Assembly: GCA_963828195.1 (NCBI GenBank)
Contig: CAWHDT010000005.1
Span: forward strand, 320,001-384,000
Length of the DNA: 64,000 nt
Source: Candidatus Bathyarchaeota archaeon
Lineage (GTDB): Archaea; Thermoproteota; Bathyarchaeia; Bathyarchaeales; Bathycorpusculaceae
Reading direction: 5' to 3'
Both the position numbers and the translations under genes were made by a program. Below, one piece after another: positions 18,702 to 35,593 of the stretch; the first letter of the stretch is position 1; each line of letters begins with the position of its first letter. Below the pieces are notes generated by a model that did no database searches, had not been told where the DNA came from, and saw nothing but the letters and a program-made list of their open reading frames with translations.

Positions 18702-19787
18702 TTAAGCTACGACTTCCGAAAGCCTGTTTTGCGTTGCCGCTTGTTTTATCTCCGTGGCTATGCGTCTGCCCATGTACATGTTTTCGCCGTATTTCAGGTA
18801 AGCGTAGGGTGAGGTGCCGATGCCCACGTTTGTCCCCGCAACTATGCGTGCGGAAATCTCGAAGGTGAAGATTTTCAAGTCATCAGTTATGACGGTTTCA
18901 AGGCAGAATGGTCCGATGATTCCGGGCGGCGCGAGTTCTTTGGCTTTCTTGTGCACACTGTCGCCCATACGCATCATTTCAGGAAGCAAAGATTCACGGA
19001 GCACAATGGGAAAGTTGCCGACCACAGTGTACGTTGGATTAACATCAATCTCCAGCTGTTCAGCTGCGGGAATTTTGCCGATTGAATCTACTGCTGATTC
19101 GTAGCGTCTATCCATCGCGAGCAACTCGACATCGTCGTTTAAAATTGAGCTGAAGTAGCTGGGGTAAACATTCACGCCTAACGCGTACTCCTGCAGGTGA
19201 ATACCCGCTAAATCCTCTTCTTTAAGCAATCCGCGTTTCACTAATTCATCGAATTTCTTGTGGAAGGCTTTGGGTGAATTTGCAAGGAAGTATCCTCTGC
19301 CGCCTTTGGCTCCGGGCAGTTTGGCGATGACTAAACGGTCAATATCCGCCGGGGTTTTGAAAGTGGCTGGCAGGCGCAGTCCTGCTTGGCGCAGCCATTC
19401 TTCTTGGGATTTGCGGTTGGCTTCCCAATGGAGCAGCTGGCGGTTTCCAAACATAGGCACCATAAGGCTGTCGGTTAATTCTTCAGTGCTCAGGTAAGCG
19501 GTGAACGACCCATGCGGAATCAAAATGACGTTTAGGCGTCGCAGTTTCTCCTGCATCTGTTCATTCAGAAGCTCCGTGAAGTCCTTGACCAGGATTAGTT
19601 CGTCAACAAGCGGGTACTTCTTGTACATTATCGCGTCTTTTTCTTTGCAAATGCACACTGTGCGGAATCCTTCTTCTCTCGCGCCTTTGAAAATGTTTAG
19701 GGAGCTATGAGAGCCCAAGGTGCCGATGGCTAGTTTTTTCTGGTCGTATTTCGCAACTATTTTGCCGATGTCCTTGGGAGTTATCAT
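18702..19787 (-). CDS. purP: FAICAR synthetase PurP (ATP-grasp)
   Basis: GSHSSLNI, IPHGSF, GAKGGRGYF, FEISARIVAGTN. Confidence 0.92.
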   Translation of the reverse strand: MITPKDIGKIVAKYDQKKLAIGTLGSHSSLNIFKGAREEGFRTVCICKEKDAIMYKKYPLVDELILVKDFTELLNEQMQEKLRRLNVILIPHGSFTAYLSTEELTDSLMVPMFGNRQLLHWEANRKSQEEWLRQAGLRLPATFKTPADIDRLVIAKLPGAKGGRGYFLANSPKAFHKKFDELVKRGLLKEEDLAGIHLQEYALGVNVYPSYFSSILNDDVELLAMDRRYESAVDSIGKIPAAEQLEIDVNPTYTVVGNFPIVLRESLLPEMMRMGDSVHKKAKELAPPGIIGPFCLETVITDDLKIFTFEISARIVAGTNVGIGTSPYAYLKYGENMYMGRRIATEIKQAATQNRLSEVVA

Positions 19788-20881
19788 GTCACCACTTCCG
19801 CAAGCCTGCCTTCTTTAACTGCACGTTTAACTTCCATTGCGACGCGCCTGCCTGGACCAACTTCCACCCCGTACTTGTACTTCATGTACGGCGACGTGGG
19901 TTCAACGCATGGGCATCCTGGCACACGGGGGCTAACATCGAAAACGTAGAACTCCAAATCCTTCGTGACGGCTCCTTGCAAAGCGAATAACCCGATCATT
20001 CCAGGCGGATACTCTTTTTTGCATGTCTCTACGAATTTTTCGGCTGCGTCAAAGATTTTTTCGATTTGGCTCTCCCGCATGGTTGCGCCCATGTGCCCGA
20101 TTTCGATGTTCTGCGTGGGAATGTTTAGCTCAAGCTGCTCCATAGCGGGCAAATCCAACACGCCGTCAAGATCTGTTTGGATACGTCTGTCAAAGCCTAA
20201 AAGATCGATTTCGTCTGTTAAAGGGGACCAGAACAGGTTAGCGTTAAATTTCGCCCCGACTATATACTCTTCTATCAGGGCGTTTTCCAGCCCTTCGCAA
20301 GTAATTATCCCCTGCATTATACGTCTCTGAGACATTTTCACGTACTCCTCAGGAGAAGAAGCAAAGAAAAAAGCGCGTTCAATCGCACGTTCTTTTTCGG
20401 GAACTTTCACGATTGCTAAACGGTCAATTTCTTCTGGTGACTCGAAGGTTTTAGGCGTCGCTATTCCAGCCTTCTGAAGCAGGTACAACTGGTTTCGCGG
20501 CGTGTTTCGTTCCTCTGTCCGCAGCATTGATCGGTTACCCATAAGGGGCACGGCGAACTGGTTCTCTATTGCTTCGTAGCCAGCGTAAACTGAGAATGAT
20601 CGGTTGGGAACAAAAACCGTGTTTAAATCAGCCAGTTTCTTGACGTTGGCGTCACTGGTTATTTCAGAGAATTTATCCAGCATAATTACGTGGTCAAAGA
20701 GGTTTTTGTAGTATTTCATGTAGGTTTTTTCTCTGCCTGTCTGGCAAACAACAACGGTTTCTAACCCCTCTTGCTTTGCGCCAGACGCTATCTCAAGCGC
20801 CGAGTGGGAACCCAAAACGCCAATGCGAATTTCTTTCGAATTGTATTTTTTTATTACTTGCTTAATTTCGTCCCCTAACAT
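19784..20881 (-). CDS. purP: PurP-like ATP-grasp paralogue
   Basis: GSHSALEI, VPNRSF, DRRIQTDLDG, DVSPRVPG. Confidence 0.85.
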   Translation of the reverse strand: MLGDEIKQVIKKYNSKEIRIGVLGSHSALEIASGAKQEGLETVVVCQTGREKTYMKYYKNLFDHVIMLDKFSEITSDANVKKLADLNTVFVPNRSFSVYAGYEAIENQFAVPLMGNRSMLRTEERNTPRNQLYLLQKAGIATPKTFESPEEIDRLAIVKVPEKERAIERAFFFASSPEEYVKMSQRRIMQGIITCEGLENALIEEYIVGAKFNANLFWSPLTDEIDLLGFDRRIQTDLDGVLDLPAMEQLELNIPTQNIEIGHMGATMRESQIEKIFDAAEKFVETCKKEYPPGMIGLFALQGAVTKDLEFYVFDVSPRVPGCPCVEPTSPYMKYKYGVEVGPGRRVAMEVKRAVKEGRLAEVVT

Positions 20882-20883
20882 GC

Positions 20884-21936
20884 TTATTCCTTCATGTATT
20901 TTCTGTATTTCGCAATTACCTCTGACAGCTCAGGGGCACCAAACATTTTGCGGTTTGTCATCGCGTTTGCCGCCGCCATGTACATCTCGCTGATGATTGT
21001 TTTAAGCTCGGGGTCAAGTTTCGGCGGCTGCGACTTGCACAGCGCTTTCCAATATTGGATGCCTTTAGCTTCAGCCTCTTTTTTCGCCGCCTCCAGATCC
21101 GTGTACCAGCGGGTTTTCTTGTAGAATTGACGCGCCACCTCTTTGCTGACATGCACGCCGCCGTAGGTGAACCTGCATTCGTCAAGGGTTCCGACTACGT
21201 CAACTATCATGAGTTGTCTTTTCTCGTCGAAGGCTAACTCGATTTTTCCATCCTCATTCTTGAGCCCAGCTTTCGCAGCAACTTCAGTTATGGTTTCGTC
21301 GGCTTTAAGCAAAATGGCTTTGACATCGGCTAGTTCTTGGTCGGTTAAACCCGCGATTTTCTGCGCTTCAGCCCACGTCACGTAACGGTCAGTTTCTTCA
21401 AGCTTCGTACTCACGTCAAAGATTGGCTTCGCCAAGTTTTCTCCTGGCTTTGGATAGTGTTCTAAGCCGAGGTCTTTTAGCGTTATTTTTCCCTGTTCAA
21501 GCCGTTTGAAAACTGAGGAGCCTTCGGGCAAGCCGTTTCGATAGATTATTTCAAGCGGGATTAGGCAGTTCTTCAATTTGGATGTGTAGATGCTGTAGTC
21601 ATGCAGGATTTTGCCGTTAACTACGCTTGTTTTTGGCTTGTAAACGTTAACTAAACTGACTTCCATGATGCTTGAGGGCTGCTTTAACCCGCTAAACTTG
21701 ACCGCTTTGCCGTCCGAGTCCACTAAGCCTCTATAGTGAGTCCTTACTCCTTTGCGCTCCAATTGTTCAAAACAGTACGCGCCCATAAGGCACAGAGCAG
21801 CGCCTTTGCCGTCGATTAAATCGGGCATTTCTCCCCAGTCAAAAACGCTGTAGCGGTCTGAAAAATGGAATCTGCCGACGCCCATTTGAGTCTGGGTGGG
21901 TTTCTTTGTTACTTCAAGGTCTTTGACGCTGCCCAT
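20884..21936 (-). CDS. purC: SAICAR synthase
   Basis: MGSVKDL, FSDRYSVFDWGEMPD, STKLE, DGKIE, DVVGTLDECRF. Confidence 0.95.
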   Translation of the reverse strand: MGSVKDLEVTKKPTQTQMGVGRFHFSDRYSVFDWGEMPDLIDGKGAALCLMGAYCFEQLERKGVRTHYRGLVDSDGKAVKFSGLKQPSSIMEVSLVNVYKPKTSVVNGKILHDYSIYTSKLKNCLIPLEIIYRNGLPEGSSVFKRLEQGKITLKDLGLEHYPKPGENLAKPIFDVSTKLEETDRYVTWAEAQKIAGLTDQELADVKAILLKADETITEVAAKAGLKNEDGKIELAFDEKRQLMIVDVVGTLDECRFTYGGVHVSKEVARQFYKKTRWYTDLEAAKKEAEAKGIQYWKALCKSQPPKLDPELKTIISEMYMAAANAMTNRKMFGAPELSEVIAKYRKYMKE

Positions 21937-22009
21937 TCTGCAATCCCTATTTCGTCTCTTTTCTATCAGATTTACCTATTTTAGCTTATATCAATATCTA
22001 GAACCGCAA

Positions 22010-22090
22010 TCACATTTTAAAGAATATAAGCAAATGCGCCCAAGCCATCAGACATAGAAGCATCAATGCAAGAAGGATAGTTATCTTCAT
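22010..22090 (-). pseudogene. Signal-peptide-like remnant of a truncated secreted-protein gene
   Basis: MKITILLALMLLCLMAWAHLLIFFKM*. Confidence 0.35.
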
Positions 22091-22228
22091 TCTTCTTCGA
22101 ATTTGCCATTTTGTTGTTAAAGCGATAAAAAGTTTTTCATTAAGGTTTCTTGACTAAGATTGGTTAAAGTTTCCTTACTAAACCTTCACTTTTTTAAGCT
22201 CGAAATTTGGTTCTTAGGGATTTAATTC

Positions 22229-22940
22229 TTAATTTGGCTTATCTCTCTGCTTTTTTATTCTTAGTATGATTGCTATAGAGAGTATTGAAAAGACTAAAAG
22301 CAAAATTACTAGCAATTCCAATTCTGGAACTGTAAGAATGGGTGAAGGAGAAGCTTGGTTAACTAAAAGGTTACGATTGCCTTCTACATTAATATATATT
22401 GGTTGGTTATTGGAACTTTGATCCCAATTTGCATTTGTCGCAAACAGTTGACCACCTTCGGGGTCATTGTCAGTTACGTCATAGGAAAGAACCCCATTAA
22501 ATTCAAGTTTCAAATTAGCAACTTCAGGTTTAAAGCTCATAGAGAGTGTTCCACTGCTATTTTTGGGGTGTTAAGGTAATTTCATAGTTGACTAAATTTT
22601 GTATAACTGAATTAACCGCAGACTCATTAAGCAAAATCGGGTACTCCAAAATATTGAACACAATAGAAAAACCATCGCTATTATAATATTGATTCAGGTA
22701 AGTTATTGATATCAACCAATCAGCTGTGTAAGTATTATTCTGAATCCAAACACCATTAGGGTCCGTCTGAATCGTCGTAGTAACGTCAAATGTACAAATA
22801 ATATTACTACTATCTGCCTCATAGATGTTGGTTTTTCCAAAATCTTCAGTTAAAGTCTGGCCATGAGCGGTCATAGCAATCTCTGAAAAAAGTAACAAGC
22901 ACATGATTGATAGAACAATTATCAATTTTGAAGAGATCAT
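22229..22940 (-). pseudogene. PEF-CTERM surface protein split by a 1-nt frameshift
   Basis: ORF 22557-22940 (signal peptide) and ORF 22229-22540 (VPEL, TM, basic tail) join as LTPQ-NSSGTLSMSFK if one A is removed from CCCCAAAAATAGC near 22560. Confidence 0.75.
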
Positions 22941-23024
22941 GTTTATGCTATTTTATTCCAACTTGGATTTATTACTTTGTGATTTTTTTGTTTGCTTAAC
23001 GCTACAGACTTTGTTCTTAGCAGC

Positions 23025-23129
23025 TTACTTCTTTGTTCGGCTTATTCTCCGCTTTTTTAGTCTCAGTATAAATGCAATGGATAGCATTGAAAGGAACAGG
23101 GGTAAAATGGCTATCAATGGAAACTCTGG
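23025..23129 (-). pseudogene. Orphan PEF-CTERM sorting-signal tail
   Basis: PEFPLIAILPLFLSMLSIAFILRLKKRRISRTKK* with no ectodomain upstream. Confidence 0.75.
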
Positions 23130-23159
23130 AAAAGGCAATAATACCCTAAAAGCATGGGA

Positions 23160-23284
23160 AAGTGTGCAAAATAACTGTGCAATAAGCACGGTAAAGTGTG
23201 CAATAACCGATTAACTGCTATTTCATGATAATATTCAGCATGGACTTATGGTAATATTTGCACACTTGTAATATTACCATGAAA
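23160..23284. repeat. Clustered direct and inverted repeats at the element's left end
   Basis: TGTGCAA three times direct (23163, 23177, 23197) plus one inverted; 11 bp inverted repeat ATGGTAATATT/AATATTACCAT (23248-23280) and a third related copy at 23225. Confidence 0.75.
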
Positions 23285-23881
23285 AAAACGAGTTAATAGT
23301 GATTTTTAGTGCTTTTCAGGTTTAAGGTTGTTAAATCACTGTATACAATGTATGCAGGGTTTTTTGGGGTTGTTTTAGTTAATTTTTGGGCTTTTTCTCC
23401 ATTGAAAAAGACGGTTAAAAGGCGGTGAATTAAAGGTGTAATTTTAAAACTCGGTGTGAATTATAAACTTGGTTTACAAACTAAAATTACTTAAGCGTAA
23501 CCTTTGGTAACTAGTTAATGGGAAAACATGCCCGTTTTTAACTAAAATTCACCGTTTTGTCTTTTATCGGTGAAAACATTATCTATTATCAATAGTTTGG
23601 TAATTATCGCATATTTTTATAGGGAAACTTGTAATTTTTACAAATAACCTTCTCTCCCAGAGAAAAAAGCCCGCGAGCGAACCCAAAAAAGAAATCACAA
23701 AAATCACACCTTGCTCTGCCTTCTAAAGTGGCTATAGCGCTTTGAGTTTTGAAACAATTACCGCTAGCCGTTTCTTAATGTTTTCAATGTAGGTGTTTAA
23801 GTGTAGAACAATATAGGTGGTTAGGTGTAAGAGTAGAAAGGCTTAAAAGCAGATAACAACAATATAGCACTCGTATTTGAG

Positions 23882-23950
23882 GATAGGGTTCCCGTCTACC
23901 ACTCAAGGCGGGAGGCATTGGAAGAGAGAGGTTCCTTCTATGCCTTTATC
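23882..23950 (+). ncRNA. Candidate structured leader RNA (three-way junction)
   Basis: P1 GAUAGG/UUUAUC, P2 UCCCGUCU/AGGCGGGA, P3 GGCAU-GGAAG/CUUCU-AUGCC; lies between a TATA-like CTTAAAAG (~23842) and the RHH gene. Confidence 0.5.
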
Positions 23951-23972
23951 GTAACAAAGGAAGTCGGTCAAT

Positions 23973-24116
23973 GTGGGAAAAATCAACCTTGTAGTTTCTG
24001 ACGAATTAGAAAAACAATTCCGAGAAGCAGTTTTTAAAAAATATGGAATGAAACGCGGCAACATAACGAAAGCCACTGACGAAGCTCTGCAAGATTGGAT
24101 AAAAAAGACCGCTTGA
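23973..24116 (+). CDS. 47 aa ribbon-helix-helix protein (absent from the ORF track)
   Basis: GTG start; MGKINLVVSDELEKQFREAVFKKYGMKRGNITKATDEALQDWIKKTA. Confidence 0.8.
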   Translation: MGKINLVVSDELEKQFREAVFKKYGMKRGNITKATDEALQDWIKKTA

Positions 24117-24230
24117 TTTTTCCCTACTTTTCCCCTTATTTTTGTGTGGAAAACATATTTAAGCAGTAACTTTAGCGTTTGCCGTAACTCTGACTCCTAA
24201 AAGGAGAAAACAAAATGCCTATATTTAGTT

Positions 24231-24434
24231 TTGTTTTTGAGCGCTCGGGGAACTTGCACGGCAAGAATGAACCTGAAACGGTTCGACCCCGACAACCCAT
24301 TAAACCAAAAACAGTACAGCCCAGAAAAGATAGCACAGCTTAAGCGGATGAAGGAAAAACAGGAAGGCGGTCAAAGATGGAAAAACCGACCGTGCTATGA
24401 GCATTGGTCTATCGACCATCGCCAAACCGATTAG
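24231..24434 (+). CDS. Small basic hypothetical protein
   Basis: 67 aa ORF downstream of the RHH gene; start uncertain. Confidence 0.35.
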   Translation: MFLSARGTCTARMNLKRFDPDNPLNQKQYSPEKIAQLKRMKEKQEGGQRWKNRPCYEHWSIDHRQTD

Positions 24435-24455
24435 CCAAAAGATTGTTTTGTGCGC

Positions 24456-25226
24456 TCACACAATACTTTTTCGCCTTTTTCCCAAAACATCCTCAGATTC
24501 TTCTTTGGTTAACAGTTGAAAGTTGCTTTTGCCTTCTTTCAAAACTTTATTGAATACATTTTCGAGCTGTTGAATTTTGTCTTTCCCGAATGCTTTCTCA
24601 AGTGATTTTTTCATGTCAGTTAGAGCGGGTTCCGCTGTTTTGTCTTTGGCTAACGATTTAGAGGGATTTTGATATTCAAAGAGGACTTTAAAGTATTCGT
24701 CATCGCTGAGCGTTCTTGTTTTCGTCATTTCACTAATTATGCTGTGTGCGATTGGTCGTCTTACGAATGCTTGAGCGCCTCCTTGCTGTGTGACGTAAAA
24801 CGCGGGGATCTCCATAAGAGCGTTATGTCCGTCTTTTGCCGCGATAAATGCAGAGTACAAGGAGAGAGCACCTAACCATAGGCTAAGTTCCTTGAAAAGC
24901 TCTTCTTTTGGTCGTTCGCTTCCAAATTTTGTTAGGTTCTCATTGATAAGATTAAGCAGTTCAAGCTTGAGAATTGTTTCTTCCCACATCTCTTTAGGCA
25001 TGTTTTTTGGATTAAGACGATACCGTAAGTCTTTGTAGGCTTTTCTATCCGTCTCTAAGATTCCGTCTTTAGTCATTTTCTTAAGCAAACGAAAAATTGT
25101 CGATTCTGATATGCCTTCTTTTTTTGCTTTTTTTAGTACTTCCGATGCTTTGAGCCATTGCTGAGAAATAAAAATCGCGATGAGCTTTTTCTCTTTTTCT
25201 TTCGCCGAAGAATCAACGCGAGACGT
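24456..25226 (-). CDS. Winged-helix repressor-like protein
   Basis: Frame stays open 46 codons upstream of the tracked TTG and contains ASEVLKKAKKEGISESTIFRLLKKMTKDGIL; SD AAGGAGG precedes an ACG at 25226. Confidence 0.7.
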   Translation of the reverse strand, partial: TSRVDSSAKEKEKKLIAIFISQQWLKASEVLKKAKKEGISESTIFRLLKKMTKDGILETDRKAYKDLRYRLNPKNMPKEMWEETILKLELLNLINENLTKFGSERPKEELFKELSLWLGALSLYSAFIAAKDGHNALMEIPAFYVTQQGGAQAFVRRPIAHSIISEMTKTRTLSDDEYFKVLFEYQNPSKSLAKDKTAEPALTDMKKSLEKAFGKDKIQQLENVFNKVLKEGKSNFQLLTKEESEDVLGKRRKSIV

Positions 25227-25337
25227 CCTATTTCCTCCTTATTTGATAGCAATACTTGACAGAAATCGTTTATAAGCTTTACTGCTTATTGGTGTAATAA
25301 TTACTATCAGTTAGGAGTAATTCCGAGAAAGGTAGTA

Positions 25338-25544
25338 TTGGAGAGAGAAAAGAAAATGGACAAAAAACCGAGTTTCCAAATGGATGCACCAACCCTAAAA
25401 CTTGTTGATGAAACAGCCGAGAAAATAGGCATCTCCCGTTCTGACTTTTTCAGAATGGCAGTCAAAGAAAAACTCTTTCGTCTTGGCGTTCTTCAACAAG
25501 AACAAAGCCTAAGCGTCAATAGCCACATGAGCGGAGGTGCTTAA
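25338..25544 (+). CDS. CopG/ribbon-helix-helix regulator
   Basis: PSFQMDAPTLKLVDETAEKIGISRSDFFRMAVKEKL. Confidence 0.85.
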   Translation: MEREKKMDKKPSFQMDAPTLKLVDETAEKIGISRSDFFRMAVKEKLFRLGVLQQEQSLSVNSHMSGGA

Positions 25545-25919
25545 ATGTCGCAGAAAGAAACAAAAAAAACTGAGCCGCTATCAATCCAACTCCAAGCCAT
25601 AAATATTATGATAAAAGCCTCTGAACATAACGGCATCTTTGATTCAGGTTTTAGTCTCCCTGACTTAGCTCAAAACGCAGAATACCGAGGCATGAAAGGA
25701 GAACAACTTTGGACAGCAGAAATGCTTGAAAAAGTAATAACCCGATTCCGACAACACATCGCCACACATCAGACCGAACCAAAAGACATAGACGCGCTCC
25801 TGACATTGCTATCCACAAAAATTAACGTCAACATCGACCGTATCCGCAGATGCTTTTACGGAATCCCAGAGCCAGCTTCCGAAACTGTCAACCTCTTTCC
25901 AACAGAAGAAACCGAATAA
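25545..25919 (+). CDS. Hypothetical protein
   Basis: 124 aa, SD GGAGGT, abuts the RHH stop codon. Confidence 0.7.
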   Translation: MSQKETKKTEPLSIQLQAINIMIKASEHNGIFDSGFSLPDLAQNAEYRGMKGEQLWTAEMLEKVITRFRQHIATHQTEPKDIDALLTLLSTKINVNIDRIRRCFYGIPEPASETVNLFPTEETE

Positions 25920-25945
25920 ACCAATTCTAAGGAGAAAAAGCCAAA

Positions 25946-26020
25946 ATGTCCGAAAAAACACAAAAAATCTTAGAAATCGCCGCTTTTCTCATAGTGGCGG
26001 TTTTAAGCCTAATCCTATAG
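25946..26020 (+). CDS. 24 aa hydrophobic micro-peptide
   Basis: MSEKTQKILEIAAFLIVAVLSLIL*, AAGGAG upstream. Confidence 0.5.
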   Translation: MSEKTQKILEIAAFLIVAVLSLIL

Positions 26021-26034
26021 AAAAAATCAACGCT

Positions 26035-26265
26035 GTGAATATGATGTCTATAACCTCGCCGTCAAAACTAAGTAAATCTGTTACTGACAACGTTCTAAAG
26101 CAGATGGAAGAAAAAGCAATAGCTTACATCGGAGCTAATAAAAAGGTCGTAATCATCGCGGTCGCTGTAATCTTAGCCTTAATCGTTCTCTATCTGTTGA
26201 CACGTCAACCAAAGCCTAACGCTGAATTTTTATCTTCATTGGGGAAAATAAACGAGCATTCTTAG
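26035..26265 (+). CDS. Small single-TM protein
   Basis: KKVVIIAVAVILALIVLYLL helix. Confidence 0.6.
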   Translation: MNMMSITSPSKLSKSVTDNVLKQMEEKAIAYIGANKKVVIIAVAVILALIVLYLLTRQPKPNAEFLSSLGKINEHS

Positions 26266-26269
26266 GAAG

Positions 26270-27820
26270 GTGTCATTTACGAGTAACCGTCAACTTGCAA
26301 GCCCAAAGACAAGGCATGGCGAAATAAAAACACCTGAAAAAGTTAGCGCTTTATTTAGCCGCTTGAAAAAAGACAAGCCAGAGCCAGCCAACCCCGAAAC
26401 AAACCCGTGGAAGCTGAAACCCTTTAAAGGCATAATTCGCGGGGAATTTCACCAGAGCAGTTTACAACACGACCAAGAAGTAGAAATCCGTAACGGTATG
26501 CAGTACGCGGACTACCTGAACATATCAAAAAGGCAATTCCTCTATTTGATTTACGCCGATTTTCCCAATGGTGCGCCAACAAGCTCACGAACTCTTGCCG
26601 ATGCAAAAGTTGCTGAATACAACAAAACGCTATGCCATCAATATCTCGCTAAGCACTATCAGAACCCCGTAACAGGTGAATGGACAGACGCGGGTAAGAT
26701 GGTTGATGCAAGAGGTCGATACTTATACATGAAATTTGGACAACGTGACCCCGCACTTTTCAGCTTGGAAGATTTTCAAGAAGCAAAGAAAGACGCATCC
26801 TTTTATGACGAGCAAGGGAAACTTAAGTTTTCGCCGCTGTCTCAGCTTCGATGCATTATGCAGTTTACGGCTTTACAGGTTGAGGACTCACCACTATCTC
26901 GAAGGCGTTTTCAATTCGTGGAAGGCGACGAGTGGGATACAACAGGAAAAAAGAAAATAGGCGGTAAAAAAGACGACTATCTCCAAGAGCAAGAGCTAAA
27001 AATTTACGTGGAAAACATCAATGAACCCGACACGCTCGTTCTGCACCGATTAGGCTTAGAAGGCGGGGGGAGAATAAGCAGTGAATTACTTATGGGGCAA
27101 AAACTACTAAATGGCTATCTTTGTCAGGCTTTTTGGGATTTGAATTGCTTAAGCATGTTCGAGCCAAAAGTTGAAGGCAGTAAGACGGGCGGGAAAGTAA
27201 AGAGGTACTTTGCACCTGAAACGATGGCATTTTTCCAGCGGTACGTTACTGACTTCAATATAAAAGGTGCATGGTTTACGCGCTACCCATCAGAGGAACA
27301 CAACTATACAAGCTATGAGAGCAGTCTAAAATCGGCGGGTTATCGAGCAGGGCTTTGGCGTTTTAAGAAGGCTCAGAAGGGGCAAGAACTCGCAGACGGG
27401 GAAAAATTAGCCGCTAATGGACAAGTCTATAGATTAAAAGCAGTTAACAACAACCAAAAAGGCACACAGGACTTTGAAAAACAATGGTTAACCGAGGGCA
27501 AAATGACAACAAGCCACACGGTAATGAAACATACATTCGTGAGTCTCGCAGGACTTCATGGCTTGAGCTTAGACGATTGCGCAGAACAATGCGGAACAGA
27601 CCCAACAACCATACGAGACTTCTATCATGGCACCTTAGGCGACAAACTCCGCTCAGTAATCTTAGGCGAAAAAACATATGAACCGTGGAAAGATTGGATA
27701 ACCCGCTTTGTTGAACCATTATACACCAAGCGCTATAGCGAACTGATAAGCCAAAGTAAGATTGTTGTTGACTTAAAAGCAATCGCCCAAGAAGAGGCAG
27801 AAATGGCAGAGGTTGCGTAA
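26270..27820 (+). CDS. Divergent tyrosine recombinase/integrase
   Basis: YLQEQEL, LGLEGGGRISSELL (Arg), EPKV (Lys), SHTVMKHTFVS, QCGT...TIRDFY (Tyr). Confidence 0.8.
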   Translation: MSFTSNRQLASPKTRHGEIKTPEKVSALFSRLKKDKPEPANPETNPWKLKPFKGIIRGEFHQSSLQHDQEVEIRNGMQYADYLNISKRQFLYLIYADFPNGAPTSSRTLADAKVAEYNKTLCHQYLAKHYQNPVTGEWTDAGKMVDARGRYLYMKFGQRDPALFSLEDFQEAKKDASFYDEQGKLKFSPLSQLRCIMQFTALQVEDSPLSRRRFQFVEGDEWDTTGKKKIGGKKDDYLQEQELKIYVENINEPDTLVLHRLGLEGGGRISSELLMGQKLLNGYLCQAFWDLNCLSMFEPKVEGSKTGGKVKRYFAPETMAFFQRYVTDFNIKGAWFTRYPSEEHNYTSYESSLKSAGYRAGLWRFKKAQKGQELADGEKLAANGQVYRLKAVNNNQKGTQDFEKQWLTEGKMTTSHTVMKHTFVSLAGLHGLSLDDCAEQCGTDPTTIRDFYHGTLGDKLRSVILGEKTYEPWKDWITRFVEPLYTKRYSELISQSKIVVDLKAIAQEEAEMAEVA

Positions 27821-27823
27821 AAA

Positions 27824-28471
27824 TTGACGGCAAGAAGCATCAGATTAAGCGCTGACGAAGAGACTAAAGAGAGCGAAATCTTCGCCTTTTATGGTGTACA
27901 AGGCGAAACCTACAGCGAGCAATACCGCGATTTCATAGTAAAGATCCATAAAGCAATGCGCTTAGACGTAGTGATAGAAACACCCGATAATCCCGCTGTA
28001 CATCCCGCGCCAAACATTACCGTTATGCGCTGTCCATTACGCAAAACTCTTACAGTCGCACACAAAGACAAGAAAACTGGCGCTATCCTTTGGAGCGAGA
28101 AAAAACTCATATGCGTAAACAACCCACCACAAAAGACCTTTCTTGATGGCTCAGAAATATGCGAAGTATGCTTAGCGAAATTTTACGGTTTAGCAAAGAA
28201 ACTACGCGCCGCTAATCCTGACAGTTTGTCAGCACCGAAACAGAAGTCACAGCAAGAAGAAACGCCGATAACACAGCCAATAGACATCCCAGCCGCCACA
28301 CGTCAGCTTTTCTTAGCTCATTATGACGGTAAGAAACATTGCCCTTTCAGTGGTGACCGCATTTTAAGCCAAACTTGCTATGTATGCAGTACGCAAAACT
28401 CTAAACGCTGGAATGAATGCCGAGTGCTTGTCATGTCGATTATAACACCGCAAAAGGCAACAGCAAACTAA
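27824..28471 (+). CDS. Cys-rich hypothetical protein
   Basis: Two Cys clusters including CEVC and CYVC. Confidence 0.7.
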   Translation: MTARSIRLSADEETKESEIFAFYGVQGETYSEQYRDFIVKIHKAMRLDVVIETPDNPAVHPAPNITVMRCPLRKTLTVAHKDKKTGAILWSEKKLICVNNPPQKTFLDGSEICEVCLAKFYGLAKKLRAANPDSLSAPKQKSQQEETPITQPIDIPAATRQLFLAHYDGKKHCPFSGDRILSQTCYVCSTQNSKRWNECRVLVMSIITPQKATAN

Positions 28472-28495
28472 GCCTTCCTTTTTTTAAACCAATAG

Positions 28496-29125
28496 GTGAG
28501 ACGAATGGTAACTACCAAAAAATCTGATAAAAAAGCTAAATTGCTCAATGCAGACCTTGACCTTGAATATTTTGAAATATTGGAAAGGGTTATTGCAGAC
28601 CAAAATCTTAACGGTAGACGAGAAGGTTTAGCCGTTATTTTTAAAGGCTATCTGAAGTCATGTAATCCCTCTGCCGCTGAACATGAACCTACTATTTGCG
28701 AGTTCCTTTCCGACGATAAAACTCTTTGTTGCAAAAATAAGGATAAAATCAAAAAAACAACGATTAAAGAATGCAAAGGCTGTCAGAAAACGCAAGAAGT
28801 CGTCGCAAGAAACCAACGTATGGAAGAGCTAAGATTTCATGGAGAACTTTTAAGACATGATTTGACTGAGCAAATGTGGATTTTTGAACTTGGCATTCCC
28901 TTTGAAAAAACAGGGTATGACACTTTTAACCGTTTGCTTTTCCTCAAAGAAAAACTCGACCAAAAAGAAAGGGAAATTGCAAAGCTTTTGCCGCTCGAAA
29001 TCGAAAACGCTTCCCTAAAACAACAACTAAGCGAAAAAGCAATGGAAATACAGACTTTGAAAGCTGAAAACGCTAAGCAAGAAACCACAATCAATGACTA
29101 TATGTTTCAGAGGAAACCCCAATGA
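28496..29125 (+). CDS. Hypothetical protein: RHH-like N-terminus, Cys cluster, coiled coil
   Basis: CEFL..LCC..CKGC followed by a heptad-rich C-terminus. Confidence 0.7.
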   Translation: MRRMVTTKKSDKKAKLLNADLDLEYFEILERVIADQNLNGRREGLAVIFKGYLKSCNPSAAEHEPTICEFLSDDKTLCCKNKDKIKKTTIKECKGCQKTQEVVARNQRMEELRFHGELLRHDLTEQMWIFELGIPFEKTGYDTFNRLLFLKEKLDQKEREIAKLLPLEIENASLKQQLSEKAMEIQTLKAENAKQETTINDYMFQRKPQ

Positions 29126-30012
29126 AATATCTGCTTTTGGTTCCCATCCGTAACAGTGCTCACCTTCTACCGTTCTTTTTCCAATCGCTTAGAAGCATGA
29201 ACCCAAAACCTGACTATATCGTTTGGTGCACCAATAACAACACCGATAAGACTGTTCAAAAACTGAAAGCTTTCCGCGATATTCCCTCAGAAATCATTGA
29301 ATTGCCCGACTTTCCGAAAGACTTCATCAAGCAGAAAGGAGTTTTTGAGGCGATAAGCATCGTTCGTCAGCGCCTTTGGGAGCGTGCGCGAGAACTTAAT
29401 AGCGAATGGACTTTTATGTGTGACTCAGACCATTTTGTTGTTTCATCTGACATCTTGGAAATACTGAGCACTTGGAACGTGGATTTTGTTGTAACGCCTC
29501 AAATGCGCTTTGTAGAAAATGCACAGAAAAAGGGAGAGTACGCAATAATTTTAACTGCATGGCTGCTTGAAAATGGCAATTGGTGCCGTGTTTTTTCAGA
29601 CTTTTATACTCACGCATTAATTCCCCATCAGCTATTTGTTTGCCGCTCCACTCTAACGCCGCAAAGACCACTCCTTGTTCCTAACATGGCTGTGGCTTAC
29701 GGATTTTATTGCTTTAGCCGTCGCCTTGTTCAAGATTGCCGTTTAAATTGGCATCCGCTCTCAGATTCCACAGCAACTAAAGACCTTCCAATCGGTGAAT
29801 TCCTCGTACTTGCCAGAAACGGGTTAGTCGGCAAAAATGGCATGATTGGTGAGGATATGCAATTTGCTCTGAGTGCGCGAAGGCTTGGTTACATAATACA
29901 TATGGATGGAATAGCCGTTATCGACCATGTGTGCTATGACGAAAAAATTAGCGGAATTAAGGCGTGGGATTTCAACATGAATGCTTTTGTGCCTTCTCAA
30001 AGTATGCGGTAA
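29122..30012 (+). CDS. GT-A fold glycosyltransferase (GT2/Anp1-like)
   Basis: LLVPIRNS, NNNTDKT, CDSD (DxD), GEDMQF..ARRLGY. Confidence 0.85.
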   Translation: MKYLLLVPIRNSAHLLPFFFQSLRSMNPKPDYIVWCTNNNTDKTVQKLKAFRDIPSEIIELPDFPKDFIKQKGVFEAISIVRQRLWERARELNSEWTFMCDSDHFVVSSDILEILSTWNVDFVVTPQMRFVENAQKKGEYAIILTAWLLENGNWCRVFSDFYTHALIPHQLFVCRSTLTPQRPLLVPNMAVAYGFYCFSRRLVQDCRLNWHPLSDSTATKDLPIGEFLVLARNGLVGKNGMIGEDMQFALSARRLGYIIHMDGIAVIDHVCYDEKISGIKAWDFNMNAFVPSQSMR

Positions 30013-30104
30013 GAGCTATTATGACATTTCAACTACAAGAAACGCCTTTTTGGGGTCAATTTACGGCTAAAGTTTTTTAAACCAATCAACCCCTATTTTA
30101 TGTT

Positions 30105-30413
30105 ATGAGTGCTGACGAAAAAGACATTGTTTTTATGGTTAGCTCTGCGTGTAGTGGTTGCGGCTCTTACCTTAGAGCGTACAGTAAAGATTCGCGACTA
30201 ACTCGCTGTTTTGATTGCGGAGCAAGAAAGCCTCATCCAAATATTTTATCCGTTTTCCAATACGAGGAAGAAATGGTCGGCGAGTCAAAAGAACACGGAA
30301 CAATTTTTCAAAATCGTAGACGATGCAAGGAATGTGGTTCTAATAAGTATTTTTACATCATGGAGAACGGTGTTGAAAAACAACGGTGTGATGAATGTGA
30401 GGATTTATTTTAA
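30105..30413 (+). CDS. Double zinc-ribbon protein
   Basis: CSGC/CFDC and CKEC/CDEC. Confidence 0.75.
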   Translation: MSADEKDIVFMVSSACSGCGSYLRAYSKDSRLTRCFDCGARKPHPNILSVFQYEEEMVGESKEHGTIFQNRRRCKECGSNKYFYIMENGVEKQRCDECEDLF

Positions 30414-30431
30414 AAAATGAGGGGATACCCT

Positions 30432-30563
30432 TTAAGCCCTGCGGGGCACTTCATTAGAGTGCTTTTGGTTTAGAAAGTGTTCACCCCGACGCAAAAGAAC
30501 GGTTGTAATTGTCACAATCGCAAAGATGCTTAGAATTGCAAGTGTGCAATTAGGCACTTCTGG
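30432..30563 (-). pseudogene. Second orphan PEF-like sorting-signal tail
   Basis: PEVPNCTLAILSIFAIVTITTVLLRRG...*. Confidence 0.5.
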
Positions 30564-30611
30564 ATTCTCCAAATCTTTCTCGATGCATTTATCCAAGCAC
30601 TTCACCCAACA

Positions 30612-30804
30612 TCATTTGGCGAGTTGCGTTCCTTCTAAATAAACAGGGTATAGCTCTACGCCTTGAGGTGTGGAGGAATCATCAATTAAATGTGCAGTTC
30701 CATCCGGGCAATAGACTTTGTCACCCTTGGAGGCTTTTTTGTAACGCTTGGCACACTCTCTTAATTGAGGGCATCCGTCGCAATCTCGTGATAGTATTTT
30801 TCAT
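30612..30804 (-). pseudogene. Small Cys-rich protein frameshifted just after its start
   Basis: ATGAAAAATA has one extra A; restored MKILSRDCDGCPQLRECAKRYKKASKGDKVYCPDGTAHLID...LAK*. Confidence 0.55.
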
Positions 30805-30817
30805 TATCGCCTCTTTT

Positions 30818-31003
30818 CTATTTTATGAACCCCATGATGTACCTTTTTGTTGAATAAATCATAAGGCTTGGATTCCTTGAAGCTTGATCTTTTATGAACT
30901 TTCGATATTTTATCGCATAATATGCAAATATTGTTATAGATGAACTTGCGCATAATGCGACCAAGGGTATACCGGTTTCTTCCATCATTTTCCACCTAAA
31001 CAT
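30818..31003 (-). CDS. Small single-TM protein
   Basis: 61 aa with a hydrophobic segment; directly downstream of a motif promoter (31097-31135). Confidence 0.5.
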   Translation of the reverse strand: MFRWKMMEETGIPLVALCASSSITIFAYYAIKYRKFIKDQASRNPSLMIYSTKRYIMGFIK

Positions 31004-31096
31004 CGGTCTATTTCATTATTTCTTTTTTTAGTGAACACCTTTTTTGAGTAATATTTTTTATCAGTTTTACTTCGGAAAGAAAATAGTGGCGTTACG

Positions 31097-31135
31097 ATAA
31101 AAGCCTGATTGAGATATATTCATAAAGATTATGAA
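31097..31135 (-). promoter_or_regulatory. Island promoter motif copy 1
   Basis: Perfect TTCATAA-AGA-TTATGAA (31119-31135), ATCTCAA, TATA-like TTTTAT. Confidence 0.7.
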
Positions 31136-31593
31136 AAGTTAAGGTAAAATTATTATTGTGAGGCCGATGCACCCATGCTTAAAAAGCGTAGATACAACAA
31201 ACAACCTGAAACCGAAAAAATAGCGGGTGTAACTTCCAACAGCTTCATTAATTGAAATAGTAACTCTCCGGATATTCGTTTATAAAATTTTTAGTTCCAC
31301 GTGTAAAATATTTCCTTTCCTTGAAGATATTGCACTCACAAAAAGCAAATACAACTTTCCCCACCATGTTTCTCTACCGTGTTTGCGGAAAAACTCACAT
31401 CGCCCTCTCTTTATTTCCTTTCAAACTGTTATCTTTTGGTTGATGACTTTTATTTTACTGAATTTCGTTTCGTATCGTTCTTCGCAGTTCGCTTTTAGTT
31501 CTAGATTCACAAACGTAAACTGTAAAGCAAAATTTGCTTTTTACCATACAACTGTCAAACATATTACAAATATTGTGAGAGTATTTTTGATAA

Positions 31594-31631
31594 TTAAGAA
31601 AAATTCTGAACAAATCATAACCAGATTTAAA
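31594..31631 (+). promoter_or_regulatory. Island promoter motif copy 2 (upstream of Lrp)
   Basis: TTCTGAACAAATCATAA-N5-TTTAAA. Confidence 0.55.
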
Positions 31632-31901
31632 TAAGATGTGAACCGCGTTAACATATCGGAAATCGAAAGAGTGAAACCACAACGATGTTTGACCTCATGA
31701 ATCCTTTGGGGACTAGCACGGCTTCTTTGAAATCGGTTTTTGCGTATAACATGCTGTGGTTTAAGAAGAGTCCCAATGCAGAGACTGATCCAAGCGAAAG
31801 ACACTTGAGAATTGATGATAAAACCAGTTTGGAGAAGCCGAAAAAAATCAGAGCTATTCTAGAAAGTGCTTCTAACGGCATAATATCGAGGCGTACACGA
31901 G

Positions 31902-32381
31902 GTGGTTGCGCTGAAAAACAATGTTGCTGATAATTTGGATAACATAGATATTAAAATTCTCAATTTGCTTCAGGAAGATAGCCGATCAAGTTTTCACGAG
32001 ATCGCGAAAAGCCTCAAAATATCTTTAGGAACAGTTCATAAGCGTGTAGAAGACTTAGAGAATAGAGGGCTCTTGAAGGGATACACCGCAGTTCTGGATC
32101 CAGTCAAGCTTGGGTACGCAATGTCAACTGTTATTTTCATTCAAACTGAGGGTGGGCATCTTGATTATGTTGAAAACATTATTTCAAAGGCAGCTAATGT
32201 AACGTCAATATACGAAATCACTGGGGACTTCGACTTAGTCATAGTTGCAAAGTTTAAAGATAGCGCCGACTTGAGTTCTTTCATCAAACAATTGCTAACA
32301 ATTCGCCATGTCCGAAGAACCGTTACAGACGTAGCCCTCAACATCATAAAAGAAGAAGCCTCTCCAGCGGTGATTGGATAA
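31902..32381 (+). CDS. Lrp/AsnC family transcriptional regulator
   Basis: LDNIDIKILNLLQEDSR HTH and YEITGDFD RAM domain. Confidence 0.95.
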   Translation: MVALKNNVADNLDNIDIKILNLLQEDSRSSFHEIAKSLKISLGTVHKRVEDLENRGLLKGYTAVLDPVKLGYAMSTVIFIQTEGGHLDYVENIISKAANVTSIYEITGDFDLVIVAKFKDSADLSSFIKQLLTIRHVRRTVTDVALNIIKEEASPAVIG

Positions 32382-32778
32382 AATGAATATTCAAAATAAA
32401 TGATAACAAAATTTATGAAACGATGTGAAAAACCTGAAGAACAACTGCAACCTTCAACTCTCAGGCTTGCCCTAAAATGGGTAGAGTCTTAACAGCTAAC
32501 TCAAACGAAATTTTTCGACAAAACTAGCTCGGTTTGCTACCGTTGGGATTGCCAAAGACCAATGGATGATCAAGCGGAAGTCTCCCTTTTTTATGAGAAA
32601 AACGAACCAGGGCATAGAAAAATGGCCTGGCGAAGTTGTTTCGGTGAATTTAGCGGCATTACCTCCGAACTCCTTTTTTACAACATTGCCTTGAATGAAA
32701 TACTTCCAGTGATAAATATGATAAAAATTTATTTCATGCTAACAATAAGGCTGCCAAATGATTCACTATTCATAATTA

Positions 32779-32816
32779 TTCTTAATATTTGTGAACATTT
32801 CTCAAATCGTTTTATA
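32779..32816 (+). promoter_or_regulatory. Island promoter motif copy 3
   Basis: TTCTTAA-TAT-TTGTGAACATTTCTCAA-N5-TTTATA; near-identical inverted copy at 35231-35271. Confidence 0.7.
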
Positions 32817-32869
32817 TTCTTATCCTAACACTCAGATTTCAGAGCAAACAAAAAATAGGATGAAATGGC

Positions 32870-32995
32870 ATGTTGGATTTGGAAACTCCATTATTGGCGC
32901 GTTTAAGCTCGTTCACCTTACCCTTCATGTTTACGGGGTATGACAGTTTGTGCATGCAACAAGCAATAAGAGCAACATCCGGCAAGGTGGATTAA
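32870..32995 (+). CDS. 41 aa micro-ORF, paralogue of 35080-35178
   Basis: MLDLETPLLARLSSFTLPFMFTGYDSLCMQQAIRATSGKVD. Confidence 0.45.
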   Translation: MLDLETPLLARLSSFTLPFMFTGYDSLCMQQAIRATSGKVD

Positions 32996-33211
32996 ACGTG
33001 TATAGTACGATAATTTTGGATTGCCAAACCAAAACAGCCTTCTCCTGCTCGGAGGACTGCATCGCTTTCAAAACATGCACTGCACGCAAGAAGCGTCCAC
33101 CAATCCGCTCTCGCAGACATTTAGTAGTCATTGAAGCTCCAACCGAGAAAACGAGAAAAAACAGGCTGAAAATCTAACAAACAAATTAACTTATGGAAGA
33201 GTAAAAACGAA

Positions 33212-33337
33212 ATGAAAGTTGTTGCTGCATGGAGCGGCGGAAAAGACAGTTGCTACGCGTACTATTTGGCAATGCAACAAGGCCACGAGGTAATCAACCT
33301 TTTAATATATGAGCTTAATACGCTTCAAACTTATTAA
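33212..33337 (+). pseudogene. N-terminal fragment of a diphthine-ammonia-ligase-family (Dph6-like) PP-loop ATPase
   Basis: MKVVAAWSGGKDSCYAYYLAMQQGHEVINLL then truncation. Confidence 0.8.
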
Positions 33338-33540
33338 GAAGACAGATTTAAATAAAATTGCAGGTGAGATTCACCTCATCATTCAAAGGGGTCTTTGGGC
33401 TTTTCAACATTTGATTGGCGACAGACCAGTAACCTCATAAAGCTTCTTCATGTCTATATTTGCTCTTACGATTTCGGCTAACTTATCCAAATTTTCTTCC
33501 CAGATCTTCTGAATGTTTTCTTCACGGTGAAAACTTGTCT

Positions 33541-34962
33541 TTAGCTGTTTTTTTCTAAGAGAAACCCAACTAAAGCCCGCCTTAGCGGTGGATCATCGAA
33601 GAGACCGTGAAGATATGTACCAAAGATAACGCCGGCATTATCACATGCGCCGTCAAGTCTCTCGAATGTGTTGTCGTCACGCTTTACTACCTTAAAGATC
33701 GGACGGGCTTTTTCGCCTAGTACAGTTGAACCCATATGGATTTCGTAACCCACAATCCTTTGCCCCCTCACTTGATCGAATATATGGCCCGATCCTATTA
33801 TCTCGGCCTCAAGCTGATTGGTGGTCTTGCCATAGAAATCGAATTTTGTTGAGACGTCAAGCAGCCCTAGCCCTCTAATAGTTGTGGGAAGGCCACCTTC
33901 AATTCCCTTTTCATCCACCAGCTCTTTACCGAGCATCTGGAATCCGCCACAAACACCAATCACTGGAACACCTTTCCCCGCAAGGTCAACGATTTTTTCT
34001 GCGAACCCAGACTGTTTCAGCCACAGAAAGTCTTGGATAGTGTTCTTGGTTCCAGGTATGACAATGGCATCCGGCGAGCCCAATTCCCGTGTTGACCCGA
34101 CAAAGTTCACTTTTACGTTTGGTTCGATTTCTAACGGGTGGAAATCCGTGAAATTTGAAATCATGGGCAGACGGATAACGGCAATTTCGACATTTGTCCC
34201 AGTGTGCGCAACAGTTTTTTCCATTAGTCCTATTGAATCTTCATCAGGGAGGACAAGTCCTTCAATACGAGGAATTGCTCCAACTATGGGCCATCCAGTT
34301 TTCTCTTCGATGATTGAAGAGCATGGCTTGAGAAAATCTTTTCGTCCCTCCCATTTATTGATTATCACTCCTTTGATTCTGTTTCTGCTGTCTTCGTCAA
34401 GCAACTCATGGATGCCGACGACGGAAGCCATAGCCCCTCCTCTGGCGCAGTTTATATCCGCAACCAATAAAACAGGAGCCTCAGCTATTTCTGCCGTCTT
34501 CATGTTAACAACGCTTACATTAAAGTAATCGTCCGTGGGGCATCCCGCTCCTTCAATGACTACTACGTCAGACTCCGACTTCAGTCGCTCAAGGGATTCC
34601 TCAATCACTTTGGTCAAAAGCGCAGCAAATTTTCCATGCTGCCAGTAGTCATCAACCGCGACATCGCAGTACGGCTTTCCGTGAATTATCAACTGAATGT
34701 CTTTTCCTATTTCCTTCGGTTTCACTAGGATCGGGTTCATGTCAACAGTGGGTTCTACGCAGGCGGCCATTGCCTGCAGAACTTGGATTCTGGCCATTTC
34801 GCCGTCTTTGGCGACGAAGGAATTTAGGGACATGTTCTGCGACTTGAATGGGACGACCTTGTACCCATCTTTGGCGAAAATTCTGCATAACGCTGCAACT
34901 ATTATGCTTTTCCCAACTTGGCTTCCGGTACCTTGAATCATTAGAGTCTTTGCTTTCTTCAT
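33541..34962 (-). CDS. cobQ: Cobyric acid synthase; the C-terminal ~48 aa are out of frame (extend to 33404)
   Basis: GTGSQVGKS, PFKSQNMSLNS, MNPILVKP, ISNFTDF, GVCGGFQMLG, GYEIHMG, GTYLHGLF. Confidence 0.92.
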   Translation of the reverse strand: MKKAKTLMIQGTGSQVGKSIIVAALCRIFAKDGYKVVPFKSQNMSLNSFVAKDGEMARIQVLQAMAACVEPTVDMNPILVKPKEIGKDIQLIIHGKPYCDVAVDDYWQHGKFAALLTKVIEESLERLKSESDVVVIEGAGCPTDDYFNVSVVNMKTAEIAEAPVLLVADINCARGGAMASVVGIHELLDEDSRNRIKGVIINKWEGRKDFLKPCSSIIEEKTGWPIVGAIPRIEGLVLPDEDSIGLMEKTVAHTGTNVEIAVIRLPMISNFTDFHPLEIEPNVKVNFVGSTRELGSPDAIVIPGTKNTIQDFLWLKQSGFAEKIVDLAGKGVPVIGVCGGFQMLGKELVDEKGIEGGLPTTIRGLGLLDVSTKFDFYGKTTNQLEAEIIGSGHIFDQVRGQRIVGYEIHMGSTVLGEKARPIFKVVKRDDNTFERLDGACDNAGVIFGTYLHGLFDDPPLRRALVGFLLEKNS

Positions 34963-35079
34963 TACTAAACCCCGTTCGGTATACTAAACACCTTTTCTAC
35001 ATAACCTTTGAACTTCTACATAGAATTGGCAACCAAAACAATCGTGCTATTTAAGTCAAGCCTCTATTGATCTTTACTC

Positions 35080-35178
35080 TTAGAACTTGTTGCACCCGAA
35101 CGAACTCCTATTCCTCATGAATGTAAAAGGTGTGGTAAACAAGTCTGGACCTGCGCATACAAAGATTCCCAAATTCAA
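35080..35178 (-). CDS. 32 aa micro-ORF, paralogue of 32870-32995
   Basis: TTG start; MNLGIFVCAGPDLFTTPFTFMRNRSSFGCNKF. Confidence 0.35.
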   Translation of the reverse strand: MNLGIFVCAGPDLFTTPFTFMRNRSSFGCNKF

Positions 35179-35230
35179 CTGTCTTTCACCCAATTTTTTG
35201 TTTTGGCTCTAAAATTAAATTGATATTTCA

Positions 35231-35271
35231 TTATATAAGGTGATTTGAGAAATGTTCATAAATATTAAGAA
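35231..35271 (-). promoter_or_regulatory. Island promoter motif copy 4 (upstream of cobQ)
   Basis: Minus strand TTCTTAA-TAT-TTATGAACATTTCTCAA then TTATATA. Confidence 0.7.
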
Positions 35272-35593
35272 TAGTTAAACGATCAAACACCATTTTAAAG
35301 ATTATTTGAATCAACATCTATGTTGCCTGCAACAATTCCCTATCCGACTTGACTTCTCTTGTTGAGAAAAAAATAGGAAAAGTCATAAGGCAATAAGCAA
35401 ATGTAGCTAAAAACATAGTTGTGCATAGTTTGACTAAGGATACTGGTTTCTTAAATCATTTTTCAAAACCTGAACGTGATGTAAATGTTTTCTTTTCCGG
35501 TAAAACTATCTTTAACGGTAATGCTTTTTTCATTTTTAATCAGTATAACTTTTGGAAGAAAACTAGAGTTTTTTTAAAAAAGAAAAGGGGGGA

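Follow-up and report, generated by a model that had tools for sequence, protein, structure and literature searches.

The stretch of DNA analysed here, referred to as the window, comprises 64,000 nucleotides of contig C5 (CAWHDT010000005.1, positions 320,001 to 384,000) from the 2.83-Mb genome of a Candidatus Bathyarchaeota archaeon (G000; assembly 96% complete). Both named records with a related integrase carry the same label, Candidatus Bathyarchaeota. Positions 23125-30564 hold a 7.4-kb integrative element, which is bracketed by two protein tails of the same layout, namely a short motif starting with PE, a transmembrane (TM) segment and basic residues. The left tail (23025-23129, minus strand; 34 amino acids (aa), PEFPLIAIL...KKRR) is an orphaned host PE[F]-TM-basic tail, with which the surface-protein gene first targeted here used to end. 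The right tail (30432-30563, minus strand; PEVPNCTLAIL...RR) is an element-borne PEVPNC-TM-basic replacement, here joined only to a 14-codon fragment. As described in an earlier note on this DNA, neither tail is preceded by an ectodomain (the open codons before them number 27 and 16, respectively), and both start in the hexamer TCCAGA, the crossover core of the element (minus strand; 23130-23125 at the distal end and 30564-30559 at the proximal end). The distal core is preceded by an attachment (att) arm (23131-23215, minus strand) composed of three TGCACA[C/G] repeats, two of them as TTATTGCACA, and a variable spacer of about 22 nt; the TTATTGCACAC repeats are likely arm-type binding sites. 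The replacement tail is read through the proximal att arm, whose motif T[A/T]ATTGCACAC (30542-30552, minus strand) is the origin of the [Y/N]C in the tail.

Between the arms, most genes lie on the plus strand. They include a 47-aa protein predicted to be of the ribbon-helix-helix (RHH) type (23973-24116), which occurs in 7/12 other full elements and weakly matches a PHROGs family without assigned function, and a 67-aa open reading frame (ORF; 24231-24434) common to two of the 12. A divergently transcribed 210-aa ORF (24456-25088, minus strand) is a putative repressor by position only, because searches of Pfam, NCBIfam and PHROGs gave no significant match. It is followed by an RHH regulator of the CopG family (25338-25544; PF01402, 23.4 bits, above the cut-off of 20.5); of the repressor/RHH switch named in the earlier note, the RHH part thus has a family match and the repressor is putative. 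Further rightward are a 124-aa ORF with no assigned function (25545-25919), a 76-aa protein with a single TM segment (26035-26265), a 516-aa tyrosine recombinase (26270-27820), a 215-aa Cys-rich ORF (27824-28471), and a 209-aa ORF with a Cys cluster and coiled coil (28496-29125), partly common to 6/12 other full elements. The series ends with a GT2-like glycosyltransferase (29122-30012), which belongs to the variable cargo and whose match to PF13704 (E 2.8e-5) falls just under the Pfam cut-off, and a double zinc-ribbon protein (30105-30413).

Pfam, NCBIfam and PHROGs give no match for the 516-aa protein itself. It has 47 homologues, two of which match integrase families (PF00589, phrog_1), and atlas features of one homologue (P0001) also support a tyrosine recombinase. 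In the predicted model (pLDDT 85), the top 13 fold matches are all tyrosine recombinases, the best with Z 16.1 and a root-mean-square deviation of 3.9 over 263 residues; integron integrase and XerA align with residues 116-480 (Z 16), and residues 1-115 were scarcely probed by the fold search. The canonical catalytic set of this superfamily is R-K-H-R-H/W-Y, including an HxxR motif. An alignment of 33 sequences (the window protein and 32/47 homologues) revealed invariant R268, K300, H416, K420, H421, T443 and Y452, of which R268, K300, H416 and Y452 are retained members of this set, K420 occupies the place of the second R, and T443 that of H/W. By predicted fold and homologues, the protein is thus assigned as a divergent tyrosine recombinase, in agreement with its first description. 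Matches were detected in 26/401 genomes of the order, with ten near-full-length loci of at least 66% identity in nine genomes of one family. Distant homologues (L045, L050-L053), about 420 aa long and likewise with K and T in the catalytic set, were found near tRNA-His, -Phe or -Val genes; no att sites were detected there, a direct repeat of at least 25 nt was absent from the two loci tested, and tRNA targeting is not claimed for them. At L041:177-10699, a 42%-identical integrase lies at the margin of a gene block that resembles a virus or plasmid, includes a P-loop ATPase and lacks the arm motif.

A second copy of the element, with an 80% identical integrase, is present in the same genome (C7:138323-147159). 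Homology between the two copies stops at TCCAGA on both sides; in the alignment, the distal match runs just beyond the core, a few bases into both host tails. At its proximal end, the second copy completes a 455-aa surface protein with the PEVPNC tail of the element, and its distal end carries an orphan PEFPT tail. Over 106 nt, the replacement tail in the window shares 96% identity with the one finishing this protein. The ectodomain of the 455-aa protein has 24 homologues, of which 10 carry a terminal PE[F/L] tail and none the element tail, and the best outside homologue (51% identical) ends in PEFPTWIILPLFAV..., which is nearly the orphan tail PEFPTLIILPLFAV.... These homologue tails support an empty site at the second copy, albeit one reconstructed from sequence rather than observed. 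With homology breaking at the same hexamer on both sides, the bracketing of the element by tails goes beyond chance.

The same ends were recovered when the distal arm, without core or tail, was used as the query. This search gave 25 matches in 20/332 related genomes, all 25 ending in TCCAGA or TCTGGA; the core TC[CT][AG]GA is at most 1 nt away from its projected position in 23/25 and is 12 and 21 nt off in the other two. For 20 elements both ends were mapped, and 19 of them have the core at both ends, with one mismatch allowed in two. The sole difference in G349 is at +7, and those in G399m and G422m fall inside the hexamer. Two sister elements (L035:5985 and 12991; L137:3635 and 12006) carry the reverse-complement core TCTGGA at both ends, which likely reflects a change of the overlap sequence in one lineage; mismatched coupling sequences of the Tn916 kind were not seen here, as both elements have the same word at each end. 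In the own genome, further ends, a mini-element and a swapped-tail gene were noticed at C2:26988, C8:13503, C9:2189 and C5:163.2-164.3 kb (L140, L141).

The flanks of the window copy derive from two targets: the left one is a surface-protein tail, and the right one belongs to a small host zinc-ribbon gene. The latter is represented by a 5′ fragment (30565-30620, minus strand) broken at its NPEF codons and marks a second target site. It is uncut at four loci in three related genomes, three of which loci have TCCAGAG at the same place, and the own genome assembly yielded no match for its 3′ half. The missing ectodomain at the right tail, a caveat raised in the earlier note, is explained by this second target. 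The arrangement, with its loss of the ectodomain gene, would likely have arisen by a deletion that ran from an att end to a second core or from one insertion to its neighbour.

With regard to target choice, the own genome contains 35 genes ending in a P/T/S (Pro/Thr/Ser) linker and a PE[F/L]-TM-basic tail, and 15 of the 35 are spelled TCCAGAR. Since x-Pro-Glu-Phe/Leu tail codons often spell TCCAGA, this family would provide a large target pool. Twelve of the 25 arm matches adjoin a TM tail; as one genome holds two of them as identical copies, this leaves 11/24 distinct ends at PE[F/L]-TM-basic tails (10/23 without the window; one further end, resembling a frameshifted tail, was scored as a miss), and ends found via the integrase gave 5/10. 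About half of the mapped copies split a surface-protein gene, and most of those supply their own replacement tail. The expectation that junctions fall in xPE codons, with many targets, is supported by these counts. Among all sites in the genome, tails make up 33/1002 (3%) of TCCAGAR, 20/169 (12%) of TCCAGARYT and 17/77 (22%) of TTCCAGARYT, so that tails are enriched 2- to 14-fold according to the motif assumed (binomial p 1e-9, 1e-4 and 0.02, respectively). As far as target sequences indicate, the simplest view of the recognised feature is that of a DNA word, frequently spelled by PE[F/L] codons, and not of the tail, because about half of the ends sit at unrelated TCCAGAR sites, and because non-tail targets keep only Y at +8 (13/14) and mostly T at +9 (8/14), with no conservation past +9 or upstream of -3. 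The survival of insertions probably adds the rest of the enrichment. Junctions do fall in xPE codons, as had been proposed, but the attB target would be the word that these codons spell. Integration at tRNAs was named in the earlier note as a refuting outcome; no tRNA gene was found in any close-homologue locus, and such genes occur only beside 5/10 distant homologues.

True targeting of sorting tails, whereby the recombinase or a helper would read beyond the core into tail or linker codons and prefer PE[F/L] at insertion, other sites being secondary, appears unlikely. It could draw on the enrichment, which exceeds background for all motifs tested on 23-24 ends, and on the integrase tree (22 sequences), where the tail-targeting members form two supported groups inside a nine-member clade with six members at tails and three at non-tail sites, while none of six close homologues outside the clade lies at a mapped tail. 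On the other hand, this explanation has to accommodate the unrelated half of the ends and the lack of conservation around the non-tail targets; survival bias yields the same pattern, and the longest motif gives p 0.18 on the 10 integrase-found ends.

The proximal arm consists of the core, 5 nt and T[A/T]ATTGCACAC, and always reads PExx[Y/N/C]C. At 16/29 proximal ends it runs in frame into a TM segment and basic residues (random read-through, about 1%), and the other 13/29 have no TM tail, which means that the spare tail anticipated in the earlier note is supplied by only part of the elements. At codon position 2, T makes up 62% and A 3% in a set of 10 tails, versus 29% and 36%, respectively, in 10 tail-less ends, and this bias indicates that the replacement tails are coding. 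Counts of synonymous versus non-synonymous codons (46 vs 220) are uninformative at such divergence and give no support. Pairwise identity between tail groups is 23-53%, suggesting about four or five sequence types, and the tails may thus have originated repeatedly. A P/T/S linker lies upstream of 12/16 tail-bearing ends versus 1/13 tail-less ends (Fisher p 0.0005), although the 12 probably include one false call, and a pattern built on known ends was the source of four among the 29; for the 20 elements with both ends mapped, the tail-by-linker table is 7/4/1/8 (p 0.03).

In addition, integrase-less mini-elements of 727-2075 bp with both arms were detected in several genomes, including the own genome (C5, about 163.2-164.3 kb), and these too carry replacement tails. 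In G371 and G422 the insertion is clean, with an ectodomain or linker on one side and an orphan tail on the other; in G424 the flanks are a linker and a frameshifted tail. One block of tail and cargo (76-82% alike) recurs at surface-gene and unrelated sites, which shows that the replacement tail is part of the mobile unit. Across 13 full elements (6-14 kb), only the integrase and the arms are constant. The glycosyltransferase, found in 3/13, was ruled out as a core gene, and glycosylation of surface proteins by the element, as suggested earlier, gains little support from a gene of this distribution. Within the G044 element (L002:4122-6096), the cargo resembles an ATP-grasp ligase with a short precursor peptide and may be graspetide-like.

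PEF-CTERM is a tripartite signal, and many host surface proteins show what it would lead one to expect, namely the motif, a TM segment and a basic tail, with archaeosortase genes in the genome. PEF-CTERM has been linked to archaeosortase C, according to the part of the source used here (PMC5244752). The likeness extends to the host tails (PE[F/L], TM and basic parts) and to two archaeosortase-family genes in the own genome; unlike the described system, the host tails stay below the TIGR03024 cut-off (best in genome 20.5 bits vs 23 bits), and both sortases score too low for the ArtC as well as the ArtA profile. Control genomes likewise remained below the TIGR03024 cut-off, weakening the test, and since host tails also miss it, this profile does not discriminate and was dropped as a test of the right-hand tail. 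On a position-specific scoring matrix (PSSM) of the 35 host tails, the left tail (23025-23129) scores 52.5 (leave-one-out range 9.5-54.1). The element-borne tail of the window has no NCBIfam match and is not a canonical PEF-CTERM, contrary to what the earlier note implied; it has the TM and basic parts with a PExx[Y/N]C motif, and the swapped tails bear a Cys at position 6 that is found in 0/35 host tails. Element tails are predicted to be TM anchors of a different kind from host tails, and 7/12 of them score above the shuffled 95th percentile on the PSSM.

Taken together, the observations point to a mobile element with ends at TCCAGA, word-directed insertion, tail replacement, mini-elements acting in trans and a two-target copy in the window, a reading to which we assign a probability of roughly 0.78. 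Briefly, the tyrosine recombinase would insert at TCCAGA, likely preferring TCCAGAR-Y-T, wherever the word occurs. Insertion in a surface-protein gene separates ectodomain from tail, as at the second copy, and orphans the host tail at the far end; in several lineages the proximal arm carries the reading frame on into a PExx[Y/N]C-TM-basic tail that is new to the gene. The new tail likely keeps the protein membrane-anchored, and because of this, tail-bearing insertions in surface genes may survive selection. Mini-elements, whose presence is seen directly, would likely be moved in trans and swap tails alike.

Several points weigh against this reading. Element tails score 0.7-18.2 on the host-tail PSSM, whereas 34/35 host tails score at least 23, and these low scores make sortase recognition of element tails doubtful. 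A tail-less element persists inside a surface gene (G263), and two tail-bearing targets look broken, with a frameshifted linker in G135 and only 36 open codons upstream in G424. The longest motif gives only about two-fold enrichment, and the p-values are overstated because the genomes are related. Among the non-tail ends, several have a site in common, and one sequence group takes in many of the tails. The attB site is reconstructed rather than observed, as no same-species empty allele of a surface gene is at hand. The circular junctions asked for in the earlier note were likewise not seen: four contig sets over 19500-35500, at a depth of about 1-5, yielded no circular attP or empty-site joint. 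Pfam and PHROGs revealed no replication or transfer gene in the element.

A broader version seems doubtful: a transposon-like integrase family specialised on sorting-signal codons as a dispersed, many-copy attB, with replacement anchors evolved several times via the att arm, would, together with its mini-elements, be permanently altering the anchoring of surface proteins in Bathyarchaeia and creating a Cys-bearing tail class with different sortase processing. If true, this would constitute a mobile anchor-swap system creating a new tail class in Bathyarchaeia.

Less probable still than tail targeting is a diversification useful to the host, in which tail swaps, membrane cargo and the glycosyltransferase would be kept, shufflon-like, for surface remodelling (anchor type, lipid or glycan modification, virus escape). 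The Cys at position 6 would suit it, as would the apparent membrane or secreted proteins in several mini-elements and the retention of swapped tails by intact genes near which a distal arm was not found (G000 C2). However, the Cys derives from the arm motif TATTGC, which is present in tail-less ends too; the glycosyltransferase is the exception among full elements, arms occur in only 20/332 genomes, and the four low-depth contig sets gave no sign of reversible switching. Finally, chance or an assembly artefact, that is, unrelated tails sharing a six-base coincidence, is very improbable even with a core that short (TCCAGA occurs 1639 times in the genome) and window flanks that do not reconstitute one gene, as it is taken to be refuted by the second copy and the 25 arm matches ending at the same word, and the left junction is bridged by independent contigs.

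The word-directed, tail-replacing element may be compared with several known systems. In the R64 shufflon, the C-terminal part of PilV is altered by segments that invert at one locus. The tyrosine recombinase Rci of this system varies a surface protein, PilV, as stated in the part of the source used here (PMC12282955). The present element shares a tyrosine recombinase that alters part of a surface protein; unlike the shufflon, it shows direct-repeat integration at dispersed loci and swaps the anchor, not the adhesin tip. Identity with a shufflon was ruled out on these ends. Tn916 and Tn1549 are low-specificity tyrosine-recombinase transposons with many targets, arm repeats, non-autonomous derivatives and variable coupling sequences. 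The element resembles them in the first three respects, and the Tn1549 integrase is a fold match of the window recombinase (Z 13.6); it differs in its identical 6-bp core at both ends, and conjugation genes were not found. The dusA-associated integrases use one target gene with a 21-bp consensus and bring a non-identical replacement of the displaced gene part, as far as the cited portion describes them (PMC4482086). Both systems have a tyrosine integrase, an intragenic attB and a non-identical replacement, whereas here a 6-9 bp word is hit in dozens of unrelated surface genes and other sites, and the replacement is optional and of several sequence types. Archaeal integrases (SSV1/2, pNOB8, pTN3 and SNJ2 types) mostly use tRNA genes and rarely intragenic sites, and the part of the survey used here lists no multi-gene motif target (PMC8371274). 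The fold and the direct-repeat-leaving integration are shared with them; in contrast to most, no tRNA adjoins the close homologues here, and the integrase gene is intact, central and not split. A report on Bathyarchaeia viruses mentions integrases, without att sites in the portion used here (PMC10541130). A Huangdivirus- or pleolipovirus-like provirus was tested for: no virion or structural gene was found with PHROGs and no integrase relative in IMG/VR, searches that divergent capsids could escape. The element is judged to be a real and apparently undescribed variant of integrative element, no description having been found in the searched literature, whose coverage mostly excluded subscription journals. 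Its ends, its target word and the spare tails are seen in the sequences, and it is likely that it moves and that its tail serves as an anchor.

Such an element shows how dozens of tolerated targets per genome may be reached through a codon-fixed short word and a generic replacement part. Natural tail-swap alleles represent material for testing what archaeosortases need in a sorting signal, and PExx[Y/N]C tails may be read as scars of mobile DNA. The recombinase, with its short and well-mapped core, comes from an archaeal class with few described mobile elements.

Some other features were noted around the element. To its left, a neighbouring host surface-protein gene with a PEL tail (22229-22940, minus strand) carries one frameshift near 22560, in a short homopolymer region covered by two independent contigs with identical sequence. 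At this frameshift, a 23-nt stretch (22561-22583) exactly matches, on the opposite strand, the spacer in the distal arm of another element (G344, L040), which could be chance. Further left, 21936-22000 is a variable low-GC block where 5/6 relatives have one gene directly upstream of the next, presumably a purE-like gene upstream of a purC-like one. On the right side, inverted repeats of 45 nt (89%; 32773-32817 and 35233-35277) flank a gene that we assume to be cobQ-like; a related stretch lies on contig C8, and the unit is possibly another mobile one. The region of a tiny Cys-rich ORF at 30650-30800 was the source of most matches in 100/120 genomes of the genus, often in multiple copies.

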